Origin: a virus
Reading direction: 5' to 3' (one strand)
Virus record (IMG/VR): IMGVR_UViG_3300034068_000734
Location: 4,414-68,413 of that record
Length of the DNA stretch: 64,000 bases
Shown: one piece after another, positions 7,180 through 52,690 of the stretch
Numbering within the stretch: position 1 is the first letter of the stretch
Layout of the letters: each line of letters starts with the position of its first letter
Program-made: the position numbers and the translations under genes
Notes under the pieces: generated by a model
The model's database searches: none
What the model was told of the DNA's origin: nothing
The model's input: only the letters and a program-made list of their open reading frames with translations

Positions 7180-7180
7180 G

Positions 7181-7396
7181 TCAGTACCGATCGTCCGGGT
7201 CACGGCCGAACCGGTCCTCGGGGTCCTCGTGATGCTCGTGCTCGCATTCGGGGCACTCCCAAGTGAGGTTGTTGCCAGCGATGTAGCAGACAACGTCGCC
7301 CTCCCAGTCGCACCTATCGCACACTGCGTCCTTGAGGGTTTCCTCGTCAGCCTCTGGGGGAGACGCAAGTTTCCACGAGTCATATGTGGTGCTCAT
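7181..7396 (-). CDS. Small acidic zinc-ribbon protein
   Basis: YDSWKLASP, CDRC and CPEC. Confidence 0.65.
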   Translation of the reverse strand: MSTTYDSWKLASPPEADEETLKDAVCDRCDWEGDVVCYIAGNNLTWECPECEHEHHEDPEDRFGRDPDDRY

Positions 7397-7944
7397 GAGG
7401 TGGCCTGTGCCTTGCGCAGGTGCTGCTCGACGTTCTTAGACGCCCACCAAGGCGGTCCTGAATCAACCCATTCTTGGGCTTCGGTGATGGTCAAATAGAA
7501 CTTGACTTCAACGTACGTGGACGCCTCATAGTCCGGCGCGGTGGCTTCCGAGAAGAAGACCTTGGACTTCGAGGCCGCCCTCTGCTTATCTCCATTCCAT
7601 TTAGTGGGAAGGAATCCTCCTGCCGTCAACCAGTCGTCAAGTGATTGGAATGCGTCCATCATCTCGGTGACTGCGGATTCCTTGACCTCTTCGTCATTGG
7701 TCATGCACGCGACTGACATGGATTGCTTGGCTACCTTCAGTGCTTCGTTGGGATCCATTTCGGTCTCTTCGGCTTCCTCCTGCGCATCCCAGGCCTCGCT
7801 GGCTCTCCTCAAGTCCTCTTGATCGTCATCCACGGGCCATCCGCTTGCACGGCAGACGGCTTCCGCAAAATCCATTGCCTCCGCGCGACTCACCATGCGA
7901 ACTGGCTTCTTCTCTTCGTTCATTCCCATGATTGCTTCACCCAT
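7393..7944 (-). CDS. Hypothetical protein
   Basis: Operon-coupled ORF; LDDWLTAGGFLPTKW motif. Confidence 0.65.
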   Translation of the reverse strand: MGEAIMGMNEEKKPVRMVSRAEAMDFAEAVCRASGWPVDDDQEDLRRASEAWDAQEEAEETEMDPNEALKVAKQSMSVACMTNDEEVKESAVTEMMDAFQSLDDWLTAGGFLPTKWNGDKQRAASKSKVFFSEATAPDYEASTYVEVKFYLTITEAQEWVDSGPPWWASKNVEQHLRKAQATS

Positions 7945-21682: not shown

Positions 21683-22210
21683 TGGCTGTCATCGGCTCAG
21701 TCATCACCATCGACGGTGAACGCCTCATGCTGTGGTGCGAGGCACCAGCCCAAGGACAGTGGTGGGCACGCAGACAGGACGGGAAGACCACGGCACTCGT
21801 ACGCAAATCCAAGGCCAAAGACACCGCTGGATCATGGGTGTGGGCATGAAGCCGTGCGACTGCCAGGCGCAGAACCCCGTCTTGGGCAAGCCGTACCTCG
21901 TCGCGCACCTCATCGCCACACAGCTCCACAAGCAAGGAATGCGGCAAGTCAAATGCCCGAACTGCCACCTGTTCACTGTATGGACTGACAAGAAGACGAC
22001 ATGAGCTTCGACCCAAATGAGAAACGTCCAAAGCATTGCTGGGTGCTGCGCACAAATGGCATCCACATCATGTACGCGTGCGCTCACTGCAAGTTCAATC
22101 CCCGGCAACGGATGTGGCCATTCACGCCTGATGAGCATGTCAAAGTGGTCCAGTCGCTAGAGCAGCATTCGACGCACTGCTGGTTTGTGCGACACAAGGT
22201 GGCAATATGA
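21682..22210 (+). CDS. Three small coupled ORFs (21682-21849, 21846-22004, 22001-22210)
   Basis: ATGA-type overlaps; CxxC motifs in the last two. Confidence 0.5.
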
Positions 22211-23763
22211 CCGCGGAACTCACGAGGACCACACTCAGCCTCGACGACGACGGCAACCGCATCTACCCCAAGCTGCAACTGTCCCGGCCCCCAGCGAACC
22301 CTGAAGAACTCTGGTGGCTGGTCAAAGCACTATGGAACGTGGAGATCCCTCGGGTGAAAGTGTGCCCGGATCACGTCGCCCCATTCGACGCCTTCTCGGA
22401 AGGCTACTTCGGCAATGAGAACAACTTCTGCCTCTGGTACGGGTCACGCGGAACTGGCAAAAGTTACATGCTCGCGCTCCTCGCCGTCACCAAGAGCATG
22501 GTGCAGGAGACGAACACCGTCCTCCTCGGCGGATCAATGGCTCAGGCCGCGAACGTCCAAGAGCACATCGAGAACATGCTCCTCACCCCAGGCGCACCCA
22601 CATGGGCGGTCGCACGCCAGATCCAGACGGAGATCACGTTCAATGGCGGCAACTGGATCAGGCCACTTCCCGCATCGCAGAAGACCGTCCGAGGACCCCA
22701 CCCTTCGAATACGTTCCTGGACGAGATCGATGAGATGGACGAGAAGGTGTACGACGCCGCCATGGGGCAGGCGATGGCGAAGCCGAACGTACGCGGCATC
22801 GTCATCCCGGAGATGGTCGTTGCCTCCAGCACGTGGCAGAACCCGGTCGGGAACTTCTCACGGGTGCTCGGCATGTGCCGGGACAAGGGGCTGCCAGTCC
22901 GAACGTGGTGTTTTCAAGAAGTTTTGAGGACGGAGTCGAACCCGACTGGGTGGATGGACCCGGCCTTCATCGAGCGTAAGCGTGCCTCCGTCCCCGCCGA
23001 GCTGTTCCGCGTCGAATACGAACTGGGCGAGCCAGCAGGAGGATCGAGGGCATTCGACCTGGTCTTGTTGAACAAGGCCTTCACGCAGATGGACACTGTC
23101 AGCGAACGCCATAGTTCCGATGACGACGAATGGGTGTTCGAGGAGCCGCAGGCAACCGGCTGGTATGCGATCGGCGCTGACTGGGCGAAGGAGAAGGACA
23201 AGACGGTCATCGTCGTGGCCAGGGTGGACGAGAAGCCGTGGAGGATCGTGTACCTGCGGGCAGTGAACAGGAAGCCGTACCCGGAGATGGCGGCAATGTT
23301 CAACGACGCCCTCATGAAGTATCAGGCGGTCGCCGCCCATGACGGCACGGGTATCGGCAACGTCATCAACGACTACATCGATGAGCGGGCCCACAAGGTG
23401 CTGATGGTGGGCAGGGGCCGGACGGAACTGCTCGTGGACTACATCAACGCGGTGGAGAAGGGCGTGTACCGGCTTCCGGCGAACACCCCGGCATTCGACG
23501 CGCACAAGGGCACGACAGTGGATGAGGTGTACGCGCCGGGGAAGTGGAACAGCCACTTGTCGGATTTCGTGGCGGCGTTCTCGATCATGCACAACGCGGC
23601 AACGAAGCAGGCCCCTGCGGCTGCCGGTGAGGGCGTGAAGAAGACGGCGTACGTGTCCCGGTCGCAGCGTGACCTGGAGTACGGGCCACAGGAGACGGTG
23701 ATCGCAGTGATGGGTGACGTGCGGATGGTTGAGGGGGATTTCAACCCGTACTTGGTTACGTAG
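22207..23763 (+). CDS. terL: Terminase large subunit
   Basis: GSRGTGKS Walker A, FLDEIDE Walker B, IGADWAK nuclease motif, HDGTGIG. Confidence 0.93.
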   Translation: MTAELTRTTLSLDDDGNRIYPKLQLSRPPANPEELWWLVKALWNVEIPRVKVCPDHVAPFDAFSEGYFGNENNFCLWYGSRGTGKSYMLALLAVTKSMVQETNTVLLGGSMAQAANVQEHIENMLLTPGAPTWAVARQIQTEITFNGGNWIRPLPASQKTVRGPHPSNTFLDEIDEMDEKVYDAAMGQAMAKPNVRGIVIPEMVVASSTWQNPVGNFSRVLGMCRDKGLPVRTWCFQEVLRTESNPTGWMDPAFIERKRASVPAELFRVEYELGEPAGGSRAFDLVLLNKAFTQMDTVSERHSSDDDEWVFEEPQATGWYAIGADWAKEKDKTVIVVARVDEKPWRIVYLRAVNRKPYPEMAAMFNDALMKYQAVAAHDGTGIGNVINDYIDERAHKVLMVGRGRTELLVDYINAVEKGVYRLPANTPAFDAHKGTTVDEVYAPGKWNSHLSDFVAAFSIMHNAATKQAPAAAGEGVKKTAYVSRSQRDLEYGPQETVIAVMGDVRMVEGDFNPYLVT

Positions 23764-27151: not shown

Positions 27152-27261
27152 TGCATCAATATGCGCATTGTTAGGCATCCTGAGGCATTAGGCTGTTCAC
27201 CGGAGACCAATCCCCCTGTCGCTTGTTCACGACGCCCACGGGCCCTCTGGAGGAATCTGCC

Positions 27262-28998
27262 ATGCACAACCTTGAAACGATTGTCGGGGCCGAGCGAGTC
27301 TTGCAGGACATCTCCGGCGCGTACACGCTGGCCAACTATGACAACAACAAGTACATGCAGGCCACCGCTGAAACGGTGATCACGGTTCCGAACGGGACCG
27401 TTGACTGGCGGGGCAGCAGCGGGACGACGTATTACGTGTTCGCGGTCGGCGGTTCGGTGACGTGGGTGTTTGACCCCAGTCAGTCGTTCGTTGCTGCTCA
27501 AGGCTTGACCTGTACGCAGGGCGGATACACGACGGCCTACAACTATGCACCGAACATGTGGATGGTGTTCCAGCCGTCGCAGGTCGGTTCCGGCAAGCCG
27601 GGCCCTGATGGTCCCGTTGGTCCGGTCGGCCCTGGTGGCCCTGCCGGTAAGGATGGCACGCCGGGTACGCCTGGCACTCCAGGTCGTGATGGGCAGCAGG
27701 GCCCGACTGGGCCCCAAGGCTCCGTTGGTCCAGCGGGCGTTGCAGGCAAGGATGGGAAGAGCTTCGAGATCAAGGGCTTCTACGACACGCTGGCACAGTT
27801 GAAGGCTGCCCGGCCGGTGGGTGTGGCTGGCGACTGCTACCTCGTCGGTTCGCCGGGGCATTTGTTCACATGGGATCTCACTGACACCCAGTGGCAGGAT
27901 TCTGGCGTTGTCGAGGGTCCTGCCGGGCCTACCGGTCCTCTTGGTCCGCAGGGGCCGATTGGTTCGCAGGGCGATCAGGGCATTCAGGGCGTGAAGGGCG
28001 ATACCGGCCCGGTTGGCCCTCCCGGTCCCGGCGGTGGCGGTTCGAGCCTCATCACTGTTGTGGTGAAGTCCGGCGACTACACAGTGAAGTCTGATGACCT
28101 CGCGACGTTGTTCGTGGCCCACGAGAAGCCGCTTACGGTGTGGCTGCCGTCTTCTGCTGAGTCGGCGATGCCGGTCGGCACGTGGGTTGAGATCACTGAC
28201 GAGGATGTCGTTGACGACCAGACGGTTGCCCGGTTCTATCCGACGGCGAACGCACGGATCATCGCACCGTTGGGGAACGTGGCGGGCGCGTCCGGTCAGT
28301 CGATTCGTGCGATCAAGGTCGATGAAGACTCGTGGCTCATCAATGGCTTGACGAAGATCGACGCGAACCCGCCTGCCCCGAGGCCGTTCGCTCATTTCGG
28401 CGGAGGCACTGGCGTTGGGCCCGACGGCAAGCCGCTTCCGGATGTGCTGCAACTGGACTGGACGATTGACCAGCTCGGTGTGGTGTCCCAGTTCTTGGAG
28501 GTGTTCCTTCCTGACCAGACTCCTGTGTGGTCCGGGAGTGCCGCCCCTGGCGTATCCCAGTTTGTGAGCACGCAGTACCAGTTCCCAGCGTGGACGAAGT
28601 TCTTGGCTCGGGTGACGGTCACCGATAAGCAGGGCCGGGTGTCGCAGCGTGTGTCGAGCGCGTTCTACGCAATGGGGAAGCCGACGATGGCGACTCCTGA
28701 TCAGCCGTACGGGTACAAGTCGACGGTGAATCAGTTCCAGTCGTACTCAGTTCCTGCGAATGGGGCGATCAAGGAGCAGATGCCTGATCGCGGGTTCTTC
28801 GAGAGCCACGCGGAAGTGAAGATGGATGGTTTCGATTCGTGGGTGTCGTCCAACACGGAGACGGGCCGGTATTACGCCACTCCACTGATCGTGAATTACC
28901 CGAATCCTGTGTCGAAGGGCACGGCCCGTGAAGCCCGGTATGTCGCCAAGAACGATTTCGGCACGACGATCTCGACGTTCTTCATCACCCCGGCGTGA
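27262..28998 (+). CDS. Collagen-like fibre protein
   Basis: Two G-X-Y tracts separated by the IKGFYDTLAQL...GDCYLV knob motif. Confidence 0.85.
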   Translation: MHNLETIVGAERVLQDISGAYTLANYDNNKYMQATAETVITVPNGTVDWRGSSGTTYYVFAVGGSVTWVFDPSQSFVAAQGLTCTQGGYTTAYNYAPNMWMVFQPSQVGSGKPGPDGPVGPVGPGGPAGKDGTPGTPGTPGRDGQQGPTGPQGSVGPAGVAGKDGKSFEIKGFYDTLAQLKAARPVGVAGDCYLVGSPGHLFTWDLTDTQWQDSGVVEGPAGPTGPLGPQGPIGSQGDQGIQGVKGDTGPVGPPGPGGGGSSLITVVVKSGDYTVKSDDLATLFVAHEKPLTVWLPSSAESAMPVGTWVEITDEDVVDDQTVARFYPTANARIIAPLGNVAGASGQSIRAIKVDEDSWLINGLTKIDANPPAPRPFAHFGGGTGVGPDGKPLPDVLQLDWTIDQLGVVSQFLEVFLPDQTPVWSGSAAPGVSQFVSTQYQFPAWTKFLARVTVTDKQGRVSQRVSSAFYAMGKPTMATPDQPYGYKSTVNQFQSYSVPANGAIKEQMPDRGFFESHAEVKMDGFDSWVSSNTETGRYYATPLIVNYPNPVSKGTAREARYVAKNDFGTTISTFFITPA

Positions 28999-31179: not shown

Positions 31180-31840
31180 GTTCGGCAGCCCCAACGACTC
31201 TGGCAGGCGTGAACGCGGAGCGGCGTACACGGGGATGGGCACGGCGTTGGCCGGTGGCGGCGCGTACGCGTATGGACGCGGGCAGCGGCGCATGGGGCTT
31301 TCCGCGCAGGACGCGGGATCGGAACGGCATGCCGCGGGGGTCGCCGGGGCGAAGAAGATCATCGATGAGGCTCAACGCGCGTCTTCGACGGGGAAGATCG
31401 ATGGCCGTTCGAGGGCTGGACGGCAGTTGAAGGGCTTCAAGGTCGAGGTGGAGGCCGGGCGCGACCAGTACTGGTCTGGGAAGAAGATGGTGTCCCGTTC
31501 GAAGCCGTACCGTATCGGCGGCCTTGCTGCGCTCGCTGCGGGCGCTGGACTGCTGGGCGCTGGCGTTATCGGCAATGACCGCGCGCGCGCTACGTCGCTG
31601 CGGCCGAGGAAGTCGAACGTGACGAGCATGGACGAGTACCGGCACAAAGCCGCGCAGGCGGACGGCGGCTTCGTCGCGCAGGCAGACGGCAAGGCGCGTC
31701 AGGGCTACCACGACCCGGCCCCGAAGCCGGTGGACCCCAAGAAGCGGGCTTACTTCGAGCGCAACGGGATGGTCGCCGATGGCGCGTCCGAGGCGGATGT
31801 CCAGGCTTTGGCACGGAGGATGCGCGCGAATGGCCGTTGA
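31160..31840 (+). CDS. Basic glycine-zipper protein
   Basis: GMGTALAGGGAYAY and GGLAALAAGAGLLGAG segments. Confidence 0.6.
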   Translation: MTTQQPRFGSPNDSGRRERGAAYTGMGTALAGGGAYAYGRGQRRMGLSAQDAGSERHAAGVAGAKKIIDEAQRASSTGKIDGRSRAGRQLKGFKVEVEAGRDQYWSGKKMVSRSKPYRIGGLAALAAGAGLLGAGVIGNDRARATSLRPRKSNVTSMDEYRHKAAQADGGFVAQADGKARQGYHDPAPKPVDPKKRAYFERNGMVADGASEADVQALARRMRANGR

Positions 31841-33383
31841 CCCGAACTACGCGAATGTCGGGCAGAACATCGGCGCGTTGAAGACCGTGGACGTGAACCC
31901 GGTCGATGAGGCGGCGATGGTCGAGAATGAGCGCCTGAGCCCGTTCATGGAACTGGGCACGACTGGTTTGAAGCGTGCCGCCGGGTACATCGATGAGGAG
32001 TTCCTGCCGCAGCTGCGGGGCCGCAAGTCGGTGCAGGTCTTCAAGGAGATGAGCGAGAACGACCCACTGGTGGGAGCGTTGCTGTTCTCCATCGACCGGC
32101 TGCTGCGCAACGTGGAGTGGACGGTGAAGCCGGGCGGGAAGACCGCCGAGGATGCCCGCGCCGCTGAGTTCGTCGAGCAGTGCATGGGGGACATGTCGGA
32201 GCCGTGGAGCAACTTCATCGGTGAGGTTCTCACGATGCTGCCATTCGGATGGTCGTGGCATGAGGTCGTGTACAAGCGCCGCGGCGGCCAATGGAACCGC
32301 AACCCGAAGACGCGCAGCAAGTTCAACGACAACCTCATCGGATGGCGCAAGATGCCGATCCGGTCGCAGGAGACGCTGATGCGCTGGGTGTTCGATGACT
32401 CGGGCGACACGAAGGCAATGGTGCAGTTGGCCCCGCCGTTCTACAAGACGACTGTCCTGCCGATGGAGCGGAGCCTGCTGTTCCGGTACAAGTCGAACAA
32501 GGGGAACCCTGAAGGCATTTCGATGCTCCGGAACGCCTACCGGCCGTGGTACATGAAGAAGCGCCTTGAGGAGTTCGAGGCTGTTGGTGTGGAGCGTGAT
32601 CTCGCGGGCCTGCCGGTGGTGAAGGTTCCTGCGGAGATGCTGCGGGCGAAGCCGGGCACGGAGCAGGCGAAGGCTGTGGAGTCGTTCAAGCGGATGGTGA
32701 AGAGCGTCCGCAGGGATGAGCAGGAGGGCATCGTGTTCCCGATGGCCTACGACCAGGACACGAAGCAGCCGCTGTACAGCTTCGAGCTGATGGGCGGCGG
32801 CGGGGGCAGGCAGTTCAACACGGACGAGATCATCAAGCGGTATGAGGAGCGCATCCTCATGACGGTCCTCGCGGACTTCATCCTGGTGGGCCATCAGTCG
32901 GTGGGGTCGTATTCCTTGCACACGGATAAGACGGGCATTTTCCGGACGAGCCTGAACTCGATCGCAGAGACGATCGCTGACGTGCTGAACCGCTATGCGC
33001 TGCCTCGCCTGTTCATGGTGAATGGCTGGCGTCCTGAGCACCTTCCGGAGATCGTCCCGACGGACGTGGATTCGCCGGATATCGCGCAACTGGGCCAGTT
33101 CATGCAGGCGATGGCGGGTACTGGGGTGGCGTGGTTCCCGGATGGGGAACTGGAGAACTTCGTCAGGTCGGCGGCACGGCTGCCGAAACTGGACAAGGAC
33201 CAGGTGGAGATCCGGCGGAAGATGCAGATGCGCAGCGATGCGACGGCATTCGCGGACGCGAACACGGCGTACGTGCAGTCGGAGCAGGCGTCCGAGATGG
33301 CCGAGTCGGGGCAGTTGCCGTTGCCGGGCATGGAGGGCATGGATTCGCAGGGGAAGCCGCAGCAGGAGAAGGGTGCGCCGTGA
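31830..33383 (+). CDS. Portal protein (DUF935/Mu gp29-like)
   Basis: MLPFGWSWHEVVYK, NPEGISMLR, ERDLAGLPV, GSYSL. Confidence 0.9.
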   Translation: MAVDPNYANVGQNIGALKTVDVNPVDEAAMVENERLSPFMELGTTGLKRAAGYIDEEFLPQLRGRKSVQVFKEMSENDPLVGALLFSIDRLLRNVEWTVKPGGKTAEDARAAEFVEQCMGDMSEPWSNFIGEVLTMLPFGWSWHEVVYKRRGGQWNRNPKTRSKFNDNLIGWRKMPIRSQETLMRWVFDDSGDTKAMVQLAPPFYKTTVLPMERSLLFRYKSNKGNPEGISMLRNAYRPWYMKKRLEEFEAVGVERDLAGLPVVKVPAEMLRAKPGTEQAKAVESFKRMVKSVRRDEQEGIVFPMAYDQDTKQPLYSFELMGGGGGRQFNTDEIIKRYEERILMTVLADFILVGHQSVGSYSLHTDKTGIFRTSLNSIAETIADVLNRYALPRLFMVNGWRPEHLPEIVPTDVDSPDIAQLGQFMQAMAGTGVAWFPDGELENFVRSAARLPKLDKDQVEIRRKMQMRSDATAFADANTAYVQSEQASEMAESGQLPLPGMEGMDSQGKPQQEKGAP

Positions 33384-36521: not shown

Positions 36522-39500
36522 ATGGCAGTGATGAGCGTGCTGGAGACGATCACCAAGAATGATGAGGCGGCTGGCTGCTTCCTCATCGATACGGTCGTGT
36601 ACGACTACCTGGCTGACGTTGCGAAGGCGCATGAGGATGACTTGCGGGAGGTGTACTCGCTGTGGTCGCTGGACCGGGTGCAGGTCGCGAAGCGGGCGTT
36701 GGGCCGCAGGTACGTGTCGGACATGGTGTCTGGGGAGTACCCGGGCGATGACGTGCTGGGCATGTCGGGCTGGCTGTCGGGCATCGAGCGTTTCGTGTCC
36801 GCTGCATCCGTGTCGAAGGGCTTCGAGATGTTCGACATCGATGGCCGCAAGGTGCGCCGCGATGTGAACCGTGATTCGCGCGGCCAGTTCGCCCGTGGCG
36901 TGAACCAGAACAAGTCGACGAAGCTGCGTGACGTGGCGGGCCAGCCGGATCGGATCAGCCCGACGTTGAAGGGGTATTTCGACGGGAACCTGGTACCCCA
37001 TGCTGGTCTTGACGCCGATGAGCAGAAGGGTGCGGAGCGTCATCAGGGCCAGTGGGATCAGGTGAGCCGGATCGTGTCGGGGTTCTCCCGTGACTTCAAG
37101 GGCTCGGAGAAGTCGGTGGACGTGCTGCTGACGGTGCAGGATTCGGAGTCGGGTGATATTCGCGAGGTCGGGTTCCCGCTGTCCCGGTTCAACCGGAAGG
37201 ACGGTGACTCCCCGGAGAACTCGCTTCCTGACCTGCGGGATTTGAAGCCGTTGACGAACGAGTCGATCATGTCGGTTCGGATAGAGCCGAACAGGGGCGC
37301 GTCTGACACGGACGTGGCTCGGCTGGCCGCGTACAACTCGCTTGGCTCTGTCGGTGGCCAGGCGCTGGCATCGCTGGCGAACGCGGACCCGGCCCGGCTT
37401 GAGAGCTTGCGCGATGCGCTGCGGATGCCGGGGTCTGGTGATGCTGCTCCGAAGCCGGGGCTGTCCCGCTTGTTCGGGCTGCTGGGTTCTGGCGCGAAGG
37501 TGCTGGAGGAGGGCTTCGGCTCGAACAAGGTGACGCAGATGGCGCGGTTCGTGGGCGCAGTGGGGCCGCAGGCTGAGGAAGTGCTGAGCCCGTACGTGCG
37601 CCGCGCCGCCTACCGATATCGGGGCACGGAGGTGAAGCCATCAACGGCGTTGAACCCCGCGACGATGGATCCGAACATCATGACTTCGCTGTCCGAGACG
37701 CAGACAGTGGACCGAAATGGCGGGACTCGTACGACGGGCAGCGGCCTTACTGGGGATGCGCTCACGCAGCAGGCCATTGCCGACAATGCGAGCCTGTACT
37801 TGGCGACGACACTGCCGAAGAACCCGATCCTTGCGCGCCTGTCGGAGAAGTCGGGGCAGGTGCTGCCAAGCCGTGGAGCGATCTTCGACTCGCAGGGCAA
37901 GCCGGTGACGGAGGCCGTCGGGTTCACGGATGATCACTATCTGCCGTTCGACTTGAAGAACCTTGCGTCGCTGCGGGGAGGCCAGTACGTGCGGACGCGG
38001 GTGACGGGCGGGCTGACTGGCGAGGACGTGTACACGGCGGTGATGACGGGCACGAGGAACGTGCAGGTGGTGAGCGAGTCCGGGGTATTCACGCTGGAGT
38101 TCCAGCCAGATTTCCGTGGTGCGCGTGCGAACTCAGACAAGGCGAGGTCGATGTACGACCGGTACTTGAAGATCCTCGATGCTGTCGACAGGTCGGGCTT
38201 GTATTTGCTGGACCTGCCTACGCAGAAGGTCCGTGAGATCAACCGGATGGCGAGGGATCAGGCGAAGTACGGCGGCGACGAGGATGCGATCCGCGATGAG
38301 CTGACGCAGGCGGCGCGGGACGAGATGGATGATGTCAACGACACGGAGTTGAAGTCTCTCGCGGCGCAGGCGTTCAAGATCGCGACGGGTAAGGAAGTCG
38401 ATCCTGAGAATGCGCTGGCGGAGGGCGCTGCACTGCCGAGCCGTCAGCGTCAGACGTTCAACGAGTCGCTGGAGGATGCCGAGGCGATGGCCCGGTCGTC
38501 GAAGGTGAATCGGCTTCGGCTGAACGGTGAGGGCTATGCGACGGCGTTGAAGACGTTGGAGGCGCAGTTCCCGCAGTTCATCCGACGGACGGAGCGCCGC
38601 GACCTGTCGGCACTGGGCCGGGAGGCTGGCAGGGACATGCCGAAGACCCGCAGGTTGCAGCAGGACCGCGGATACGTGTCTCCGGGTGGCTTGCGGGCCG
38701 ACAAGGTGCAGAGCGGGTTCTACGCCAGTGGAGCCGTCAACCAGTCGCCCAAGTCTCAGAGTGCCAGAAATGGTTCAAATCCCGCCAGCGTTCCTCCCTC
38801 GGCCTCTGAAGGCCAGTCTGCTGGGACAACTGGGGAGAAAACGACCCCGAAGACTGGTGGGGATGCGGATTCACGCCCGGAAGCGCCGGACCCGGCGACG
38901 GCACGCGGAGCCGAGCAGCGCTTCATCGCCCGGCAGAAGCAGGCAGACACGACGTTCAAGAAGAAGGCCGCTGAACTCGGCGGCGACCTGTCGCTCATCG
39001 TCTCCGACATCGACCCCGAAACCGCCGACTCCTACCAGACGAGCGACTTCGCGTCGATGACGACGCCGCAGCGCCGGGCAATGTGGCTCATCGCGAACAT
39101 CGAGGGCGACCGGACGGTCCAGGCGCTCACCGACCGGGGCACCCGTTCGGACGCGATCGGCGCGCTGACAACACCGAAAGTCATCAAGGCGGCATTCACC
39201 CAGCTGATGAAGATCACCGAGGCAAGCGCAGGCGGGGTGGTGGACATCGGCGGGGAGCAGATGAGCATCGACGACGCCGTCGATGCGCTGTCGGAACGTG
39301 CAGGCGAACTCGCCGAACTGTCCGCGATGGCAGAGCCGTTCGCCGCGTTCCAGACAGACCAGGCGAAAGCCGCGTTCCACACCGGGCTGTCGCCGATGAG
39401 ACTCCCGGAGATCTCGGGCATCGGCAGCGTCGATCAACTGGAGGCCTACGCCGCGAAGAACCCGACTGTCGCGAGTGCGGCTGCGGCCATGGGCAAGGAG

Positions 39501-39914
39501 AGCATGTCCAAACTCGGTGGACTCGTCACGAAGCAGATCGCAGCGATGGCGAAGGTGTCCGCCGCGAAGGCATCCGGGGTGAAGGGAACGGACCCGTCTG
39601 CCTACGTGACCAATGACGAGTTCGCTGCCGCGTACCCGGGCCAGGAGTTCACGATCCAGTCGCTGCGCGCAGTAGACCCGCAAAAGAATGCGATGGACAT
39701 CCAACGCGCATGGTCACTCGCCGTCACAGTGAAAGTGCTGCAATCTTTGGGGGATGATCTCCCAAAAGATGGAGCGGCCAACAGGCCGCTGTCGAAGGCG
39801 GCAACCGGAGTGAGGGTTCTGTCCCCGACGGACCCGCTGTCGGTCGCAGTGGCGGACAGGGTGATGAAGGGCCTGCCCTTCGTTCCGAGGATGGTATCGA
39901 CTGGCCTGCGGTAG
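36522..39914 (+). CDS. Large polyvalent head-module protein (degenerate JAB-like domain; frameshift extension)
   Basis: 1130-aa ORF; RDSRGQF motif; slippery site at 39761-39767. Confidence 0.7.
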   Translation: MAVMSVLETITKNDEAAGCFLIDTVVYDYLADVAKAHEDDLREVYSLWSLDRVQVAKRALGRRYVSDMVSGEYPGDDVLGMSGWLSGIERFVSAASVSKGFEMFDIDGRKVRRDVNRDSRGQFARGVNQNKSTKLRDVAGQPDRISPTLKGYFDGNLVPHAGLDADEQKGAERHQGQWDQVSRIVSGFSRDFKGSEKSVDVLLTVQDSESGDIREVGFPLSRFNRKDGDSPENSLPDLRDLKPLTNESIMSVRIEPNRGASDTDVARLAAYNSLGSVGGQALASLANADPARLESLRDALRMPGSGDAAPKPGLSRLFGLLGSGAKVLEEGFGSNKVTQMARFVGAVGPQAEEVLSPYVRRAAYRYRGTEVKPSTALNPATMDPNIMTSLSETQTVDRNGGTRTTGSGLTGDALTQQAIADNASLYLATTLPKNPILARLSEKSGQVLPSRGAIFDSQGKPVTEAVGFTDDHYLPFDLKNLASLRGGQYVRTRVTGGLTGEDVYTAVMTGTRNVQVVSESGVFTLEFQPDFRGARANSDKARSMYDRYLKILDAVDRSGLYLLDLPTQKVREINRMARDQAKYGGDEDAIRDELTQAARDEMDDVNDTELKSLAAQAFKIATGKEVDPENALAEGAALPSRQRQTFNESLEDAEAMARSSKVNRLRLNGEGYATALKTLEAQFPQFIRRTERRDLSALGREAGRDMPKTRRLQQDRGYVSPGGLRADKVQSGFYASGAVNQSPKSQSARNGSNPASVPPSASEGQSAGTTGEKTTPKTGGDADSRPEAPDPATARGAEQRFIARQKQADTTFKKKAAELGGDLSLIVSDIDPETADSYQTSDFASMTTPQRRAMWLIANIEGDRTVQALTDRGTRSDAIGALTTPKVIKAAFTQLMKITEASAGGVVDIGGEQMSIDDAVDALSERAGELAELSAMAEPFAAFQTDQAKAAFHTGLSPMRLPEISGIGSVDQLEAYAAKNPTVASAAAAMGKESMSKLGGLVTKQIAAMAKVSAAKASGVKGTDPSAYVTNDEFAAAYPGQEFTIQSLRAVDPQKNAMDIQRAWSLAVTVKVLQSLGDDLPKDGAANRPLSKAATGVRVLSPTDPLSVAVADRVMKGLPFVPRMVSTGLR

Positions 39915-40798
39915 ACAAGGTCAAGGCGCGCCTGAACAAGCTGACTGGCATGGACACGGTCGCGACCCAGATCGACGATCTCATCAACGACGTTCGGCTC
40001 AACCGGGAACGCGAGGAGGCGGGCCTTCCCGTGTCTGACACGGGACCGGCGAACCTCATCTTCTCCGGGCCTTCAGGGACGGGCAAGACGACGATCGCGA
40101 ATCTCGTTGCCCCGCTGTATCACGCGCTCGGTATCACGCCGTCGTCGAAGATCGTCTCGGTGAACCCAGCAGACCTGTACGGATCGTTCCTTGGCGTGAC
40201 GCAGGAGAAGGTCCAGCAGGCGTTCAAGGACGCGAAGGGCGGTGTCCTGTTCATCGACGAGGCGTACGGACTCGTCACCCAGGATCGCGGTAATCGCGAC
40301 ATATACGGATTGCAGGCGCTGGCAGTCATGGCGTCGGAGATGACGAAGAACCCTGACACGGTTGTGATCCTCGCCGGGTACGAGAAGAACCTGAAGGAAA
40401 TGCTGTCGAACAATGAGGGCATGCCTCGCCGGTTCCAGCGGGTCATCAACTTCAAGAGGTTCGACCAGGACGAACGGTTCGACATCCTTCTTGGCGCTCT
40501 CGATGAGGGCAAGTACAAGCTCGCGTCCCCTGATCTCATGGATGCCCTTGAGGACTCAGTGCTCGACACGGGCGGAGGCAATGCCGGTGACGTGCAGAAC
40601 CTCGCCCTTGAGATCCTGTCCGCGCAGAAGCAGCGGCTGTCCGTAGAGAAGCCGGCGGAGGATCGAAAGGCACAGCTCGCGACGATCACTGCTGCGGATA
40701 TCAAGACGGGCTCGAAGCGGTACCGAGAGATGGGGTCGGTGACTGATCCGCTGCGTGGCGCTCTCGTGCCGACGAGCCGGAAGCGCAAGGTCGCATGA
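39761..40798 (+). CDS. CbbX/SpoVK/EccA-type AAA+ ATPase, probably expressed as a -1 frameshift fusion
   Basis: GPSGTGKTT, GGVLFIDEAY, VILAGY, RRF; the frame is open upstream of ATG 39950 back to 39758. Confidence 0.85.
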   Translation, partial: PKRWSGQQAAVEGGNRSEGSVPDGPAVGRSGGQGDEGPALRSEDGIDWPAVDKVKARLNKLTGMDTVATQIDDLINDVRLNREREEAGLPVSDTGPANLIFSGPSGTGKTTIANLVAPLYHALGITPSSKIVSVNPADLYGSFLGVTQEKVQQAFKDAKGGVLFIDEAYGLVTQDRGNRDIYGLQALAVMASEMTKNPDTVVILAGYEKNLKEMLSNNEGMPRRFQRVINFKRFDQDERFDILLGALDEGKYKLASPDLMDALEDSVLDTGGGNAGDVQNLALEILSAQKQRLSVEKPAEDRKAQLATITAADIKTGSKRYREMGSVTDPLRGALVPTSRKRKVA

Positions 40799-43449
40799 AG
40801 CGCTGGTGGGATGACGCAGGCGAGTCACTCGGCATCCTCGACCGTGTCGACGACTCGGACGTGGTGCAGGGGGTGGGGACGGCGCTGCTCGGATACCACG
40901 GCCTCGGCACTGGCGTCTTGAGGCCGCTAGCGCAGGCGACGCTCGTGGACGAGCAGGCCGTGTGCGATGCGCTGGCCCGTATCGACCTGGTGCCGGTGGC
41001 GAAGGCGCTGGCTGCGGCGACCCGACCGGTGATGGGTGATGCGTCGGACAGGTATGGGGAGTTGCTCGCATGCGACATGCATGAGCAGGCGGTGGATTCG
41101 ACGACCCGGTTTGTCAGGGCGCTGACGGCGACAGGGGTGGACTGGCCGAGTGCGCTTTCGCGTGCGGCAGACGTTCATGGGGTTCCGGCTGACCGGATGG
41201 GCATTGCCGGTGAGCGGCTTCGAGCCCAGCGGCTTCCTGTCGCGGCGCAGCAGGATTGGGCGGACCGCGCACTCGTCGGGTATGCGGCACATGTGGGCAA
41301 GCGCGAAGCCGATGGGGTGGTGTCGAAGTCCATCCGGGTCCGGACGGCTGAATGGGATGAGGGCAGCCATCCTCGGGACGATGATGGGCAGTTCGCGGAG
41401 AAGACCCGCGCTTCCACCAGTGATGTGGATGACGGCATTGGCAGTCTTCGGAGCGCTGGCCAGTCGAGGAAGGCCCGCTTGGAGAGCCGCAGGCGACGGA
41501 TGTCACGCGGCGGCAAGGCTTCCCCTTCTCATGGAGTGGTCTTCGCCGGGTCTTCGACTGGTGGCGTGACGTTCGCGGGGTCTGGGGGAGATGATCCGTC
41601 GCCGGGGGCGCGGAGCCGTCCGGCATCCGTCCGTGAACAGCAGCCGTCTGCGCGGGAGCGCATCGCCGAACGTCGACGGATGCGGATACGGGACCGCAGG
41701 AGCGCCGCCCGCAGGGAGCGCATCAATGCTTTGCTCACTACGACGCCGCCGGAGTCGCCGGATACCTTCACCGGCCTGCTCGGGGATCCGTTCCCGAACG
41801 AGCCACGCGACGGGAACGGAAAGTACTTTGGTCACCGCATGTTGCAGCGTAGGGACCTGTACACGCTCATCCCCGGTCATCTTGCGGAGGAGATTGCCAA
41901 AGACGGCGCGTTCAACATCGCCCGTGTCACCGAGACGCGCTGGCCGGGTGAGATGTCGGCGCTGACTGCCAAGCAACTGAAAGTGGAGATCGCCGAACTC
42001 CAGGAGCGGGACAAGGCGATGCGGGCGGCAGGCGAGCACGTTCACAACGCAGTCGGATCACAGGTCATCATTCGGTTCGTCGGCAGGGAGATGGCGTGGG
42101 CACCCGATTCGTCCTCGCACAAGGATGACGAGTCGGAGATCGCTACTGGTGCGACATTCAAGGTTCGTAGGGATAACGCTGACCTGCATAGTCCGGAATG
42201 GCTTGAGGTTAATGCGACGGATTTCACGTGGCGGGCGACCGCAGCATCGCCGAGTAAGAAATTCCGGTCGATGTCGGTGATGCTTGACAATCCGAACGAG
42301 TTCACGACTCAAGGCTCTGACAACGACGGCTACGGGGATGACGAAGATGACGACGACGAAACCCCGCCGCTGCCGTATGACACTCTCCACCTCTTCAATA
42401 AGGAAGATGACTGGAAAGAGAGCCTGCATCCTCGTGACACGGACGGAACGTTTCGCGCGAAGGGGTCAGGGCTGAGCGGGGTGGCATCGGACAGGGATGA
42501 GCAGTGGGCGGCGTACCGGAAGGCACGCAAGGAGCGCCGGGCCAAGCGTCTGAAGCGCGAGGCACGCCGGGCACCTGACCGGGTCGGCGTGCAGTTCGCC
42601 GGGTCCGAGCGGCTTGCTGATGTCGCAGGTACCAGGCCTGCTGCGGCTGTCTCCGAGGACCGTGCGACGTCTACTCCTACGCGCGCGCAGGGGAGCAGGG
42701 AACGTATCCGTCAGCGCATCAGGGACCGTCGCAGGGAGCGGATGCACGAGCGCCGCAGGGCCCTGCGCGACACCGGGTATAAGGGCGACCCGGCGAATGA
42801 CTTGACCGGACTTAGGTCGGTGTTTCCTAGTGATGAGGAAGCCGAGTTCCTTCTGCGCGTCGGAGAGGACGGCGGCACCGTTGATGACGAGGAGCCTTTC
42901 AAGAAGGTCATGGACGTGCTGATGCTCAGGAGGCGCGCTGCAAAGAAGGCTATTGCGTACATTGATAATGACGCTGTTCTGGGCGAAGAAATGGTTGCGA
43001 TGCCGAATTACGAGTCGGATGTCCCGGTGTTTGACACCGCGAACGAGGCAGACGTGTTCGCAGTGAAGTACATCTCCGATGTCTACGCGGCGTGGGACGC
43101 AGACGAGAAACTGCCCCCACGGTTGTTGGCGTTCTTGCAGGATGCTGAGCAGACTGGCGAGTACGTGTATTCAAAGGCGGCCCCGCACGACACATTGAAG
43201 GGCAAGTGGGTGCCGATGATGTTCTGGTCGCATCATCGAAATGACGATGCGCATCAGATCATCGTCGCGACGGAAGCGCAGTGGGATCGGGCTGCCGCGG
43301 GTGAAATCCCGAAGTTTGTCGCAAGCGACCCGGTGCCGATGTCGGAGATGCTTGCCGCGAATGGATATGGTGCAGAACGCATCGAAATGACGAATGATGC
43401 CTTGGTACAGGCAATTCGGATGGATTTCATGGACAATGTGAGGCATTAG
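40795..43449 (+). CDS. Large polyvalent head-module protein with duplicated WxExxHPRDxDGxF module
   Basis: Motifs near 41353 and 42412, each followed by Arg-rich tracts. Confidence 0.7.
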   Translation: MKRWWDDAGESLGILDRVDDSDVVQGVGTALLGYHGLGTGVLRPLAQATLVDEQAVCDALARIDLVPVAKALAAATRPVMGDASDRYGELLACDMHEQAVDSTTRFVRALTATGVDWPSALSRAADVHGVPADRMGIAGERLRAQRLPVAAQQDWADRALVGYAAHVGKREADGVVSKSIRVRTAEWDEGSHPRDDDGQFAEKTRASTSDVDDGIGSLRSAGQSRKARLESRRRRMSRGGKASPSHGVVFAGSSTGGVTFAGSGGDDPSPGARSRPASVREQQPSARERIAERRRMRIRDRRSAARRERINALLTTTPPESPDTFTGLLGDPFPNEPRDGNGKYFGHRMLQRRDLYTLIPGHLAEEIAKDGAFNIARVTETRWPGEMSALTAKQLKVEIAELQERDKAMRAAGEHVHNAVGSQVIIRFVGREMAWAPDSSSHKDDESEIATGATFKVRRDNADLHSPEWLEVNATDFTWRATAASPSKKFRSMSVMLDNPNEFTTQGSDNDGYGDDEDDDDETPPLPYDTLHLFNKEDDWKESLHPRDTDGTFRAKGSGLSGVASDRDEQWAAYRKARKERRAKRLKREARRAPDRVGVQFAGSERLADVAGTRPAAAVSEDRATSTPTRAQGSRERIRQRIRDRRRERMHERRRALRDTGYKGDPANDLTGLRSVFPSDEEAEFLLRVGEDGGTVDDEEPFKKVMDVLMLRRRAAKKAIAYIDNDAVLGEEMVAMPNYESDVPVFDTANEADVFAVKYISDVYAAWDADEKLPPRLLAFLQDAEQTGEYVYSKAAPHDTLKGKWVPMMFWSHHRNDDAHQIIVATEAQWDRAAAGEIPKFVASDPVPMSEMLAANGYGAERIEMTNDALVQAIRMDFMDNVRH

Positions 43450-43457
43450 GAGGATTC

Positions 43458-44267
43458 ATGGATTCGCGTACTGCTGTAGACGTGCTGCTCGATGTGGACC
43501 CGGGTTTCGTTGAGCTGTGCAAGTCGCTGCTCGGGGACGCTGTTGACCCTGCCGATGTGTGGGAGTTCATGTACGCGACCGGCCCGGTGGTGAAGATGTC
43601 GCCGGATTCCGCTGACGTGGCGGTCCGTCGCGGCCTTGGTGCTGCGCGTGGCGCGCTGCGCAAGGTGACGGGGTCCCGGAAGGCGAAGACGGGCGCGCTG
43701 ATGCTCGTGAGCGGTGCGGCGGGTGCTTCGGCGTCTGACGCGATCCGGTCGAAGGGCGGCGACTCGTCCCGGCAGTACGGCTACTCCATCACCCGTGAGG
43801 AGCCTGCCATGAGCGGCGGTGTCGGGAAGGCTGACGACGATGACACGTTCGGCGTGACGTGGTCGGGTGAGTTCTCGAAGACCGATGACGACAAGCGGCA
43901 GGTGTTCGGGTGGGCATCCGTCGTGGAGATCGACGGCCAGCCGGTGGTGGACCGCCAAGGCGACTGGATCACCCCTGACGAGATTGAGAAGGCCGCGTAC
44001 CAGTATGTGGTGAAGTCTCGTAAGGGCGGCCATCAGCACAAGCGTGACGGGGAGAACCCGTTCCATGCGTCGGACATGATCGAGAGCATCGTGTTCACAC
44101 CGGAGAAGATCTCGAAGATGGGGCTTCCGGATGACTTCCCGGTCGGCTGGTGGGTCGGCTACAAAGTGAATGACGATGACACGTGGGCGAAGGTGAAGCA
44201 GGGCGACGTGACGGGCTTCTCGATCCATGGGAAGGGCAAACGGAGTGCTGTGGGGAGTGATCTGTGA
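43458..44267 (+). CDS. XkdF-like prohead serine protease
   Basis: KRQVFGWASV, DRQGDWI, EIEKAAY, HQH, GWWVGYKV, GFSIHG. Confidence 0.88.
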   Translation: MDSRTAVDVLLDVDPGFVELCKSLLGDAVDPADVWEFMYATGPVVKMSPDSADVAVRRGLGAARGALRKVTGSRKAKTGALMLVSGAAGASASDAIRSKGGDSSRQYGYSITREEPAMSGGVGKADDDDTFGVTWSGEFSKTDDDKRQVFGWASVVEIDGQPVVDRQGDWITPDEIEKAAYQYVVKSRKGGHQHKRDGENPFHASDMIESIVFTPEKISKMGLPDDFPVGWWVGYKVNDDDTWAKVKQGDVTGFSIHGKGKRSAVGSDL

Positions 44268-47157: not shown

Positions 47158-48138
47158 ATGCCTAGCCCCTCGCAATCCGATCTTCACGTCAACGTACCGC
47201 TGACGAACGTCAGCATCGCGTACATGCAGTCTTCGGACGCCTACATCGCGGACAAGATCTTCCCGAAGGTCCCCGTGAAGAAGCAGTCTGACCTGTACTG
47301 GAAGTACAGCAAGTCCGACTGGCGTCGTACCGATGTCGCCCGCCGTGCCCCCTCGACTGAGTCGAAGGGTGTCGGCTGGAATATGGACACCGACCAGTAC
47401 TTCGCGCATGTCTACGCCGTCCACAAGGACGTCGACGACCAGTTGCGGTCGAACGCTGACTCCAACTTCAACCTGGACCGCGACGCTACGGAGTTCATCA
47501 CGAACCAGCTCCTGCTCAAGCGGGACATCGACTGGAACGCTTCGTACTTCCAGCCGGGTATCTGGGCGACGGACCTCGCTGGCGGGACGGACTTCACTAA
47601 GTGGAGCGACGCCGGTTCTGACCCGATCGGTGACGTCGCGGACTGGATCCTTGAGTTCCGCAAGCTCACGGGCTTCGCCCCGAACAAGATGATCCTTGGC
47701 GCTCAGGTCATGAAGGCCCTCAAGCAGCATCCGGACATCATCGACCGCATCAAGTACACGCAGAAGGGCATCGTCACGGAGGATCTCATCGCGACCCTCT
47801 TCAATGTCGATCAGCTCTTCACGTCGTACGCAACGGTCGCGACTGGACCTCAGCTCGATGACGCCCGCACTCAGGACGCGGCGTCGACGTTCGACTTCAT
47901 CAGCAACGCGAAGTCGGTCCTCCTCGCCTACGCCCCGGGCGCTCCGTCGCTCATGACCCCGTCTGCCGGGTACACGTTCACGTGGAACGGATACCTGGGC
48001 GGGAATGGCGAGGGCGTGAAGATCAAGCGGTTCCGCATGGAGCAGATTGCATCTGACCGCGTGGAAGCGGAAATGACGTACGACATGAAGGTCGTCGCCA
48101 AGGACCTTGGTTCCTTCGCAAAAGAGGTCGTCGCCTGA
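47158..48138 (+). CDS. Major capsid protein
   Basis: LTNVSIAY, IADKIFPKVPV, WSDAGSDPIGD, PNKMILG, PSAGYTF. Confidence 0.9.
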   Translation: MPSPSQSDLHVNVPLTNVSIAYMQSSDAYIADKIFPKVPVKKQSDLYWKYSKSDWRRTDVARRAPSTESKGVGWNMDTDQYFAHVYAVHKDVDDQLRSNADSNFNLDRDATEFITNQLLLKRDIDWNASYFQPGIWATDLAGGTDFTKWSDAGSDPIGDVADWILEFRKLTGFAPNKMILGAQVMKALKQHPDIIDRIKYTQKGIVTEDLIATLFNVDQLFTSYATVATGPQLDDARTQDAASTFDFISNAKSVLLAYAPGAPSLMTPSAGYTFTWNGYLGGNGEGVKIKRFRMEQIASDRVEAEMTYDMKVVAKDLGSFAKEVVA

Positions 48139-50825: not shown

Positions 50826-51259
50826 TCGACATCGGACAGTTGACGACGCAGGTGGTGACGGCACTGTCGGAGTCGTCTGGGCAGAGGATCGGCGACGGGA
50901 TCGCCCCTCAGGGGGTCGGATGGCTGTCCGGTCAGCCGAACGTGTCCGCGTTCATCCCGTACTCGGTGGTGGCGTTCCAGGGCGGGCAGTTGGCTGAGAC
51001 GGCATGGTCGTACAGCGAGCAGGTTCGGGCGTGGACGACGTCGTGGCGGGTGTCTTCCTACGGGGGTTCTCGGGAGCAGTGCGACTGGATGGCGACGGCC
51101 GCACGCGATGGCGTGTACCACTGCATCGGCCGGCTGTTCGGCTCATATCGGGTGAGCATGGCCTCGTGGGGGTCGTTGGGGCCGATGACGCGCAACGATT
51201 CGGTCGATCCGCCCATGTGGAGCGTCACCGATATGTTCACGTTGCGCTGCGATGCTTAA
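50822..51259 (+). CDS. Tail terminator
   Basis: IGDGIAP, PYSVV, GGSREQCDWMA; precedes the tail tube gene. Confidence 0.7.
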   Translation: MIDIGQLTTQVVTALSESSGQRIGDGIAPQGVGWLSGQPNVSAFIPYSVVAFQGGQLAETAWSYSEQVRAWTTSWRVSSYGGSREQCDWMATAARDGVYHCIGRLFGSYRVSMASWGSLGPMTRNDSVDPPMWSVTDMFTLRCDA

Positions 51260-51333
51260 CGACAAGACGCCTTGAGGCATCTAGACTCATTCATAGTCAC
51301 TCTCGCGAGTACCGACAACCGAAAGGCACCACC

Positions 51334-51846
51334 ATGAGAATCATCCCGAATGAGAACTCCTGGATCGGATTCACGAAGGTCCGTCCGGCGAACGTCAAGG
51401 CACCGTCTGCTGCGGAGATCGCCGCCGCGGAGGACCTGACAAGTTTCATCATCAGCATCACTGCGCAGTCGCAGGGCAATACGGTTCCGACCCCGAACAT
51501 CGACTCGCTGTTTGAGACATCAGTCCCGGGTACGAGCCAGGCATCGTTCATGGCGGACATGTACCGAGACGACGCCTTGGACACCGCGTGGGAGACCCTT
51601 CCTAGGGGCACCGTCGGCTACTTCTACATCTCCCGCTTCGGCGGCACTGGCCCGGGCTTCACCCCCGTGATCGGTGAGTCTGTCGAGGTGTGGCCGGTTC
51701 GTATCGTGTCGCGCACCGCTTCGGCAATGGCGAGCAACACGGCGCAGACGTTCTCATGCACCGCATCGGTGCCTGAGGAGCCCTCTGAGAACGCGAAGGT
51801 AGCGGCGACATTCGCCAGCAATCCGGTTGCGAAGCCCTCAGCATGA
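51334..51846 (+). CDS. Major tail (tube) protein
   Basis: APSAAEIAAAEDLT, ETSVPG, VEVWPV. Confidence 0.85.
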   Translation: MRIIPNENSWIGFTKVRPANVKAPSAAEIAAAEDLTSFIISITAQSQGNTVPTPNIDSLFETSVPGTSQASFMADMYRDDALDTAWETLPRGTVGYFYISRFGGTGPGFTPVIGESVEVWPVRIVSRTASAMASNTAQTFSCTASVPEEPSENAKVAATFASNPVAKPSA

Positions 51847-51947
51847 GCTATTCGCAGGAGCCACTGGACGGCTTGGCCGCCGAACCGGTGGCTCCTGCGA
51901 CGCACGAATCACCGGGCCCTAGGGCACAGACCAGTCGGAGGAAGAAG

Positions 51948-52690
51948 ATGAGCACCGCAACGGAGACTCGCCGTCAGGCGACATTGAAGGACCTGCTGAA
52001 CAAGCCCGCCCGTGTGAAGGACGTCGTCCTGACGGTCCCGGACGAGGACGGCACGATGATCGAGTACGTGTTCTCGATGCGCGCGATCGGGTCGAAGGCG
52101 TATGACGTCCTCGTGGGGATGCACCCGCCGACGCCGGACCAAAAGCGCGAGGGCTCGACGTACAACCCTGACTCGTTCGGCCCGGCACTGATCTCGATGT
52201 GCTCGGCGAATCCCCGGATGACGCCGAATGAGGCGAAGGAACTGTGGGAGTCCGACGAGTGGAGCCGCGGGGAGGTCATGGAGATCTTCATGGCGTCTGT
52301 CGAGGTGAACAGCCGGGGGCTTGATGTCCCTTTTACCGCAGCCGACTCCGGTACGACCCGGCGTTCCAGTTAGAGGTCGGCTGGTGCTCGGATCACGGGC
52401 TCTCCCATTCGGCGCTGCTGGACTGGGAGCCGGAGGACAGGGCGAAGCTGGTCGCGTACCTGCTGGAGTCCAGTAGCAAGTGCCAGCAGTGCGGCACCGC
52501 CGCATGGGAGTGGGAGGAGGACCGTTTTGCGTACGAGCCGACGGTCACCCAATGCTGGGGCTGCTACCTCAAGGATCTCGTGCACAGCGAGGCTGACATG
52601 CCTGGTTCGCGGATCACGCTGCTGCCGAAGGAGTCGGCGCGCCTGCTGCGGGAGTCGCCGCCTGAGCCTCCGACGAGGAGGCGCACATGA
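51948..52690 (+). CDS. Tail assembly chaperone G (51948-52373) / GT via -1 frameshift
   Basis: C CCT TTT at 52328-52334; the -1 frame is open to TGA 52690, overlapping the tape measure ATG. Confidence 0.85.

Follow-up and report, generated by a model that had tools for sequence, protein, structure and literature searches.

A predicted -1 ribosomal frameshift joins a large head-module protein to a CbbX/SpoVK/EccA-type AAA+ ATPase in a lake-water phage

Introduction

Tandem slippage of the ribosome on X XXY YYZ sites, accompanied by a Shine-Dalgarno (SD)-like element and a hairpin, is a well-established route to -1 frameshifting, and the conserved -1 frameshifts of tailed phages are found mainly in the tail chaperone gene and in a few capsid genes. 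Lactobacillus phage A2 reportedly uses a CCCAAAA heptamer. In this study we describe a site of the same sequence in a 64,000-nucleotide (nt) stretch of viral DNA, hereafter the window, which covers positions 4,414 to 68,413 of the IMG/VR viral record IMGVR_UViG_3300034068_000734 and is nearly the whole of this 68.4-kb record, whose completeness is estimated at 97%. The site lies near the end of a gene for an 1130-amino-acid (aa) head-module protein and ahead of an AAA+ ATPase gene in the -1 frame. From the signals in the sequence and their conservation among relatives we consider it very likely that a dnaX-type programmed -1 ribosomal frameshift at C CCA AAA produces, in addition to the 1130-aa form, a 1425-aa fusion that ends in the ATPase.

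Such a frameshift would resemble several known systems and differ from each. As in the tail assembly chaperone pair G/GT, a conserved -1 frameshift in the structural module of a phage would give a C-terminally extended minor product from one gene, but the gene and the module are different, and the extension is a complete enzyme rather than a tape-measure-binding domain. In E. coli dnaX the spacer between the SD-like element and the heptamer is 10 nt, which is longer than the ~7 nt found here, and the dnaX shift truncates its protein whereas the shift proposed here would add a 343-residue ATPase arm. In its general features the locus is otherwise built like the dnaX (tau/gamma) site (PMC5009743): an internal SD-like element precedes the slip site, the X XXY YYZ heptamer has a Lys codon at its end, and a stem-loop follows within a few nt. 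C_CCA_AAG is listed in that source as shift-prone in E. coli. The same source gives phage A2 two -1 frameshifts, one in a head gene and one in a tail gene (PMC5009743). The first of these is like the present case in yielding a second product from a head gene, but A2 extends its major capsid protein with a small domain, whereas here a large non-capsid head-module protein would gain an AAA+ motor. By analogy only, the locus also recalls the MuF polymorphic toxins of temperate phages, which are head-module proteins with a variable C-terminal cargo domain (PMC5576092). Unlike these toxins, the protein studied here has no Phage_Mu_F match, its cargo is an ATPase and not a toxin, and the attachment would be made by recoding. 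In full-text literature searches, with most subscription journals outside their scope, no phage head gene was found to be described as frameshifting into an AAA+ ATPase.

Results

The zero-frame open reading frame (ORF) of the 1130-aa protein extends from 36522 to 39914 and stops at TAG 39912-39914. The -1 frame that encodes the ATPase is open from 39758, directly after a TGA at 39755-39757, and contains no ATG, GTG or TTG before the ATG at 39950; ATC 39896, CTG 39932 and CTG 39941 are the only near-cognate codons in this interval. C CCA AAA at 39761-39767 lies perfectly in the X XXY YYZ phase of the 36522 ORF, GGGGGA is present before it at 39749-39754, and translation of the predicted fusion gives a Gly/Ser-rich linker after it. 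Apart from the zero-frame stop and the near-cognate codons, these features had been pointed out in an earlier note on this DNA, and each of them was recovered from the sequence. The candidate 5' stimulator, GGGGGAUGAUC, is predicted to form a duplex of -10.0 kcal/mol with the anti-SD sequence, within the top 5.5% of windows in its own ORF, and a folding energy of -14.6 kcal/mol is predicted for the 32-nt segment containing the candidate 3' hairpin, where the background is -7.3 +/- 2.8 (fraction 0.014). CCCAAAA occurs only once on the plus strand of the window, and both codons are rare in the 1130-aa gene (CCA in 3 of 48 Pro codons, AAA in 4 of 51 Lys codons), so its placement is more than chance. 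The locus therefore contains an in-phase heptamer, a long -1 ORF with no start, a downstream structure and an upstream SD-like element, the parts of a dnaX-type -1 cassette. The predicted fusion has 1082 + 343 = 1425 aa, with GDDLPK followed by RWSGQQAAVE at the junction. Transcriptional slippage was rejected because the A run is only 4 long, and a second slip site was rejected because the overlap contains no other in-phase X XXY YYZ.

A family profile of the 1130-aa protein, P0002, was made from five database homologues of 1116-1188 aa, none of them fused, and 80 loci were retrieved when viral contigs were scanned with it. Of these loci, 19 have the gene cut off by the end of the contig, 39 are complete and have no ATPase (none within the 170-4000 nt of sequence downstream of the gene), and 22 have an ATPase directly after the gene. 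Twenty of the 22 have the ATPase in the -1 frame, with 115-526 nt shared between it and the upstream gene, and carry an identical CCCAAAA in phase where the -1 frame is open. The proteins of these 20 loci are 30-40% identical to those of the window, and the SD-like element and a hairpin of different sequence are kept. The cassette is also present in a further locus, L170, immediately ahead of the end of the contig. As a control, we looked for in-phase CCCAAAA within 900 nt of the stop in the 39 complete homologues without ATPase and found it in only two, L228 and L189; in L228 the -1 frame at this point is open for only 28 aa. L189 is an observation in its own right: a GGCGGUGAG...C CCA AAA context is found 205 nt before the stop, and the -1 frame is open for 193 aa (region 7103-7690), encoding a helical domain of no family with a weak Abi_C match (E 0.018); an ATGA overlap start is found at 7307. 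In this locus the cassette may carry other cargo.

Fusions within a single frame also exist. In L241 and L242, which are near-identical contigs although they come from two samples, one ORF of 1434 aa comprises both the P0002-like core and the ATPase, and CCCAAAA occurs nowhere. When this fused form was used as the query of a protein search, 436 of 8000 scored candidates were homologues at E <= 1e-5, and a hand count of the best 120 of these 436 gave 51 in-frame fusions with AAA (PF00004) and AAA_lid_6 in proteins of ~1240-1500 aa. These fusions, P0158 and 50 more, have the same N-terminal core, the same CbbX-type ATPase and a similar overall length (1434 against 1425 aa), and some of them are named 'stage V sporulation protein K' by their source. 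Having one frame and no heptamer, they would make the fused form only. Thus, the two comparisons with homologues that the earlier note had suggested, one for conservation of the heptamer and one for in-frame fusions, both came out in favour of the frameshift.

The cassettes of the 20 loci and the window, 21 in all, comprise 17 distinct sequences, which were reduced to 14 lineages by leaving out L163, L175 and L181, near-copies of the window, L166 and L187. The GC-rich members of the set seldom use the codons CCA and AAA. Given a conserved x-P-K and each gene's own codon usage, the joint probability of NNC-CCA-AAA in the 14 lineages is ~1e-34. Upstream of the heptamer, no further in-phase CCCAAAA is present in any of the 14 ORFs, and the base after the heptamer is G in all 14. 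The hairpin starts 4-7 nt downstream in most lineages, but its sequence differs between them (for example AGCGGCC/GGCCGCU, GGCUCC/GGAGCC and GCCCCU/AGGGGC). In 12 of the 14 lineages the 32-nt window from +3 has a more stable predicted fold than 94.8% or more of the windows of equal size in the ORF to which it belongs (Fisher 1.7e-10). The 18 nt upstream, scored for pairing with the 16S 3' tail, beat at least 94.5% of windows in all 14 lineages and at least 97.7% in 13 of them (Fisher 2e-18), and part of this conservation may be due to a conserved Gly-Gly; both combined p-values are too small because related lineages were counted as independent. In eight of the 14 lineages (the window, L164, L166, L168, L172, L179, L186 and L187) a TGA opens the -1 frame no more than 6 nt before the heptamer. 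As this TGA belongs to a GGUGA-like SD element, the beginning of the -1 ORF nearly coincides with the slip site.

The overlap itself appears to be read in both frames. A contig 90-92% identical to the window, L002, has an identical cassette. Between the two there are 66 substitutions in the 447 nt upstream and only 6 in the next 168 nt (39747-39914), the first 57 of which, up to 39803, have none, and the rate climbs again past the overlap. In the 35 nt from 39915 to 39949, which would be annotated as intergenic, all three substitutions fall on third positions of the ATPase frame and are synonymous there. In four close pairs that are independent of one another, zero-frame third positions likewise change less in the overlap than in the upstream part of the gene, with 56/195 against 3/57 (p 7.7e-5; the figures for the window's linker region), 27/194 against 1/56 (p 0.008), 78/195 against 11/57 (p 0.004) and 39/195 against 2/78 (p 1e-4). 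These comparisons support dual coding of the overlap.

In several lineages the -1 frame of the overlap also carries a motif. GxLVPTG followed by a basic residue occurs 12-40 residues past the slip site in L184, L186, L172, L168, L179, L187 (twice), L176 and L188, and L180 has the variant LAPTG. In L184, L186, L172, L168, L179, L187 and L188 the motif is upstream of the first ATG, GTG or TTG of the -1 frame; L176 and L180, whose starts are not listed, are outside this comparison. The linker of the window's own clade has no GxLVPTG. More widely, GxLVPT[GS] with basic residues is seen to flank the ATPase, in the trans-frame linker in lower-GC lineages, at the disordered C-terminus in the window, L165, L166 and P0042, and in both places in L188, and it is almost absent from the other long ORFs of the cassette loci. 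Possible roles of the motif are cleavage by a protease and docking.

The ATPase has matches above the Pfam cut-offs to AAA (PF00004, 2.1e-15, 57.8 bits) and AAA_lid_6 (PF17866, 26.2 bits). Its closest solved relatives are CbbX (3zuh, 7e-30) and EccA1 (1.3e-29), the best Foldseek matches of its model are CbbX chains (E ~1e-18, template-modelling (TM) score 0.70-0.75), and its aromatic pore-loop position aligns with that of CbbX. Its scores against the three NCBIfam equivalogs are 151, 144 and 119 bits, with cut-offs of 467, 423 and 459, respectively. Orthology to CbbX, SpoVK or EccA proper is ruled out because all of these scores are far below the curated cut-offs, and the sequence places the protein, as an AAA+ module, in the CbbX/SpoVK/EccA subfamily. 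The earlier note had called it a CbbX/EccA-type ATPase, which is right for the subfamily, but 'EccA-type' is too specific. Like CbbX, the red-type Rubisco activase, and like SpoVK and EccA, its closest relatives in sequence and fold, the protein keeps Walker A, Walker B and the aromatic pore-loop position; unlike them, it is found in a phage, would be tethered to a structural-module protein and has no tetratricopeptide repeat domain, which EccA has. Scans of metagenomes and genomes with the ATPase alignment, which picked generic AAA motifs, returned only CbbX/SpoVK-like genes of 30-40% identity and no close relatives.

Homology of the ATPase begins upstream of its annotated start. The Met of ATG 39950 is residue 65 of the extended -1 frame, while tblastn matches of this frame begin at residues 48-59, most matches of an exhaustive library scan begin at residues 42-63, and individual matches begin at residue 61 for CbbX, 54 for EccA1 and 55-56 for the TIGR models. 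An AlphaFold2 (AF2) model of the extended ATPase, built on 16 family members, has residues 1-40 disordered, with a predicted local distance difference test (pLDDT) score below 50, then a confident helix at residues 48-60 (block pLDDT 78-93), a turn with the Met and the AAA core. The statement of the earlier note that ATG 39950 lies inside a conserved N-terminal helix was therefore correct in that homology extends upstream of the Met, but the model puts the Met itself in the turn between helices.

The 1130-aa gene is located within the head module, with the portal gene on one side and the genes for the prohead protease and the major head protein on the other, and its product may be packaged in virions. 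The protein has no family match in Pfam, PHROG or NCBIfam. Its conserved core (residues 331-760) is predicted to have a confident fold (pLDDT 86.9, predicted TM score 0.82), for which we found no structural match in the PDB at E <= 1e-3 and only E > 0.6 in a PDB profile search; in BFVD there are weak matches to entries named 'Minor capsid protein' (E 1.7e-4 to 7.4e-4, TM at most 0.21). A Pfam scan of 57 aligned members of the family found nothing consistent, the ESM Atlas gave no usable match, and neither tblastn of the core against phages nor megablast of 38800-40900 against a phage collection gave any match. Phage_Mu_F (PF04233), the domain of MuF or SPP1 gp7-like minor head proteins, is found nowhere in the record.

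The coordinates of these and neighbouring features are given in Table 1. The space between the portal and the prohead protease is filled by three very large ORFs of no known family, and the ATPase gene is between the second and the third of them. Collagen-like tail-fibre matches are found in a 591-aa ORF (27223-28998) between the terminase and the portal, an unusual site for a tail-fibre-like gene. In a putative tail-chaperone ORF (51843-52373, 176 aa), an in-phase C CCU UUU is found at 52328, near the ORF end, with GGGGG 8 nt upstream and a 120-aa -1 frame that ends at the start of the tape measure (window 52328-52688). By its sequence this is probably a classical tail-chaperone frameshift of the G/GT type, with signals in the same style as those of the ATPase cassette. 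Near-identical DNA to the window is present in lake-water metagenome runs, and no RNA run is among those listed for it.

Table 1. Positions of the cassette, the ATPase, the motif and the surrounding genes (window coordinates unless a locus is named)
Feature	Position	Strand	Remark
Candidate 5' stimulator GGGGGAUGAUC	39749-39759	+	Complementary to 16S 3' tail; includes the -1-frame TGA
Slippery heptamer C CCA AAA	39761-39767	+	X XXY YYZ phase of the 36522 ORF
Candidate 3' stimulator, 7-bp hairpin AGCGGCC-AACA-GGCCGCU	39773-39790	+	Begins 5 nt past the heptamer
-1-frame linker (RWSGQQ...SEDGI), Gly/Ser-rich	39767-39901	+	Overlaps last 48 zero-frame codons
N-terminal ATPase helix (DWPAVDKVKARLN...)	39902-39940	+	Upstream of annotated ATG, partly inside the 'intergenic' gap
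ATPase ORF as a gene caller would annotate it	39950-40798	+	282 aa; -1 frame relative to the 1130-aa ORF
Walker A (GPSGTGKT)	40067-40090		
Walker B (LFIDE)	40247-40261		
Disordered C-terminal tail GALVPTSRKRKVA with GxLVPT[GS]	40757-40795	+	pLDDT < 50, residues 335-345
GxLVPT[GS] motifs	window 40757-40795; L184 8213; L186 2591; L172 8378; L168 8294; L179 8375; L187 8393, 8438; L176 8246; L188 8519, 9449; L165 9311; L166 9356		
Terminase	22207-23763		
Portal	31779-33383		
ORF, 968 aa	33607-36513		No known family
ORF, 1130 aa (P0002)	36522-39914	+	Zero frame; no known family; between portal and prohead protease/major head genes
ORF, 884 aa	40795-43449		No known family
Peptidase_S78_2 (XkdF-type) prohead protease	43458-44267		
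Major head protein	47158-48138		
Major tail protein	51004-51846		

Discussion

The comparison of homologous sequences establishes the cassette, the arrangement of the frames, the dual coding of the overlap and the existence of homologues fused in frame, while slipping itself and its efficiency would follow from the signals and from what is established about tandem slippage. We propose that ribosomes translating the 1130-aa gene would arrive at C CCA AAA with the upstream mRNA element paired to the 16S 3' tail, and that the GC hairpin 5 nt downstream would resist unwinding. A fraction of the ribosomes would then slip one base back, with tRNA-Pro moving from CCA to CCC and tRNA-Lys from AAA to AAA, and would continue on AGA UGG... 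into a 1425-aa protein, in which 1082 head-module residues would be joined through ~45 disordered, Gly/Ser-rich linker residues to an entire AAA+ ATPase of the CbbX/SpoVK/EccA type. The ribosomes that do not slip would stop 48 codons later and give the 1130-aa form. These are the two products that the earlier note had predicted from CCCAAAA, and the prediction is supported by conservation of the cassette, the in-frame fusions, dual coding, the motif in the -1 frame and contigs free of indels.

Several points weigh against this reading. The hairpin is unremarkable in 2 of the 14 lineages (fractions 0.143 and 0.172), and an ungapped alignment of the cassettes yielded no consensus structure in RNAalifold, and hence no covariation statistic, because the hairpins are offset between lineages. 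The Fisher tests carry the dependence among lineages already mentioned. A fifth pair, much more divergent than the other four, shows no significant suppression in the overlap (p = 0.23). All six overlap substitutions between the window and L002 are non-synonymous in the -1 frame, and three of them are synonymous in the zero frame, so the linker sequence is loosely constrained in the window's clade. Finally, there are possible starts of the -1 frame near the site: ATG 8195 in L165, GTG 8129 in L169, TTG 8333 in L166 and, in the window, ATC 39896, the best alternative start, with GAGGA 4 nt upstream (-5.9 kcal/mol).

The last of these points bears on the possibility that there is no frameshift, that the heptamer is kept for another reason, and that the ATPase is made separately, either as 282 aa from ATG 39950, where ribosomes might for instance re-initiate after terminating at the TAG 36 nt before it, or as ~300 aa from the rare start ATC 39896. 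Gene callers do annotate the ATPase ORF from the ATG, P0042 starts at the equivalent position, and an ATG, GTG or TTG is found ~29-53 nt past the zero-frame stop in several lineages. When the 18 nt before each of 19 start sites in the window were scored for anti-SD complementarity, however, ATG 39950 had the weakest SD of all (-1.6 kcal/mol, against -2.7 to -11.4), and a protein starting there would lose the confident helix; the three 'intergenic' substitutions, all silent in the ATPase frame, also speak against it. ATC 39896 has a moderate SD but is conserved in the closest relative only. Neither start explains why a heptamer of rare codons is kept in 20 of 22 loci against 2 of 39 controls, why an SD-like element and a hairpin flank it, why synonymous change is suppressed across the overlap or why a motif lies in the -1 frame upstream of any start. 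We therefore regard separate synthesis without frameshifting as improbable. A combination in which frameshifting gives the fusion and ATG 39950 gives some free ATPase would add to the proposed mechanism rather than compete with it. A Met, Leu or Val codon is common at the G[ML] position of the family motif, and in many lineages a zero-frame stop is close upstream of it, but the SD at ATG 39950 is weak, the free form would be without its N-terminal helix according to the AF2 model, and the in-frame fusion lineages indicate that the tethered form is sufficient. Such additional synthesis is conceivable, and we give it perhaps one chance in a few.

An indel of assembly or sequencing that splits a true in-frame fusion gene also had to be considered, since relatives with in-frame fusions exist and the window is a metagenome-assembled contig. 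The two-frame layout, however, recurs in 20 loci from many samples with overlaps of 115-526 nt, and the length and sequence of the zero-frame tail are conserved in P0155. Furthermore, Logan contigs from four other runs, coded as four studies but possibly from one campaign, cover 39400-40200 with 0 gaps and 0-1 mismatches. The 1-nt assembly error against which the earlier note had cautioned is thus not seen, and we consider such an artefact extremely improbable.

What the fusion would do is a further question, to which the three states of the family, with no ATPase, with the ATPase fused in frame and with the ATPase behind a frameshift, are relevant. We argue from these states that tethering of the motor is functional and that the frameshift lineages need both forms. 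Tethering by frameshift would set a fixed ratio of the two forms, the fused subunits would be a minority packaged in the virion, and the head-module part would direct the ATPase to the capsid under assembly, there to remodel proteins by threading its substrates. We speculate, with considerable doubt, that frameshift and in-frame fusion alike are a delivery device that brings a CbbX-type unfoldase, attached to the head-module protein, into the procapsid in a defined proportion, and that the XkdF-type protease cuts at the flanking disordered GxLVPT[GS] motifs to free it. The motor might then thread its giant neighbours (968, 1130 and 884 aa) while the capsid is loaded or its contents are ejected, or might enter the host by injection and remodel proteins there.

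In summary, this locus would represent a further class of conserved phage frameshift, located in a head-module gene and yielding a whole AAA+ motor tethered to a structural-module protein. Many uncultured lake-water phages, a broad group, would have to be re-annotated, because the start of the ATPase is miscalled and the fusion is missed. The locus also draws attention to a family of large head proteins that is uncharacterised and has a confident predicted fold with no solved match. The frameshifted, fused and ATPase-less members of this family offer a natural three-way comparison, which may help to explain why a fixed ratio of motor-bearing subunits is useful to these phages.

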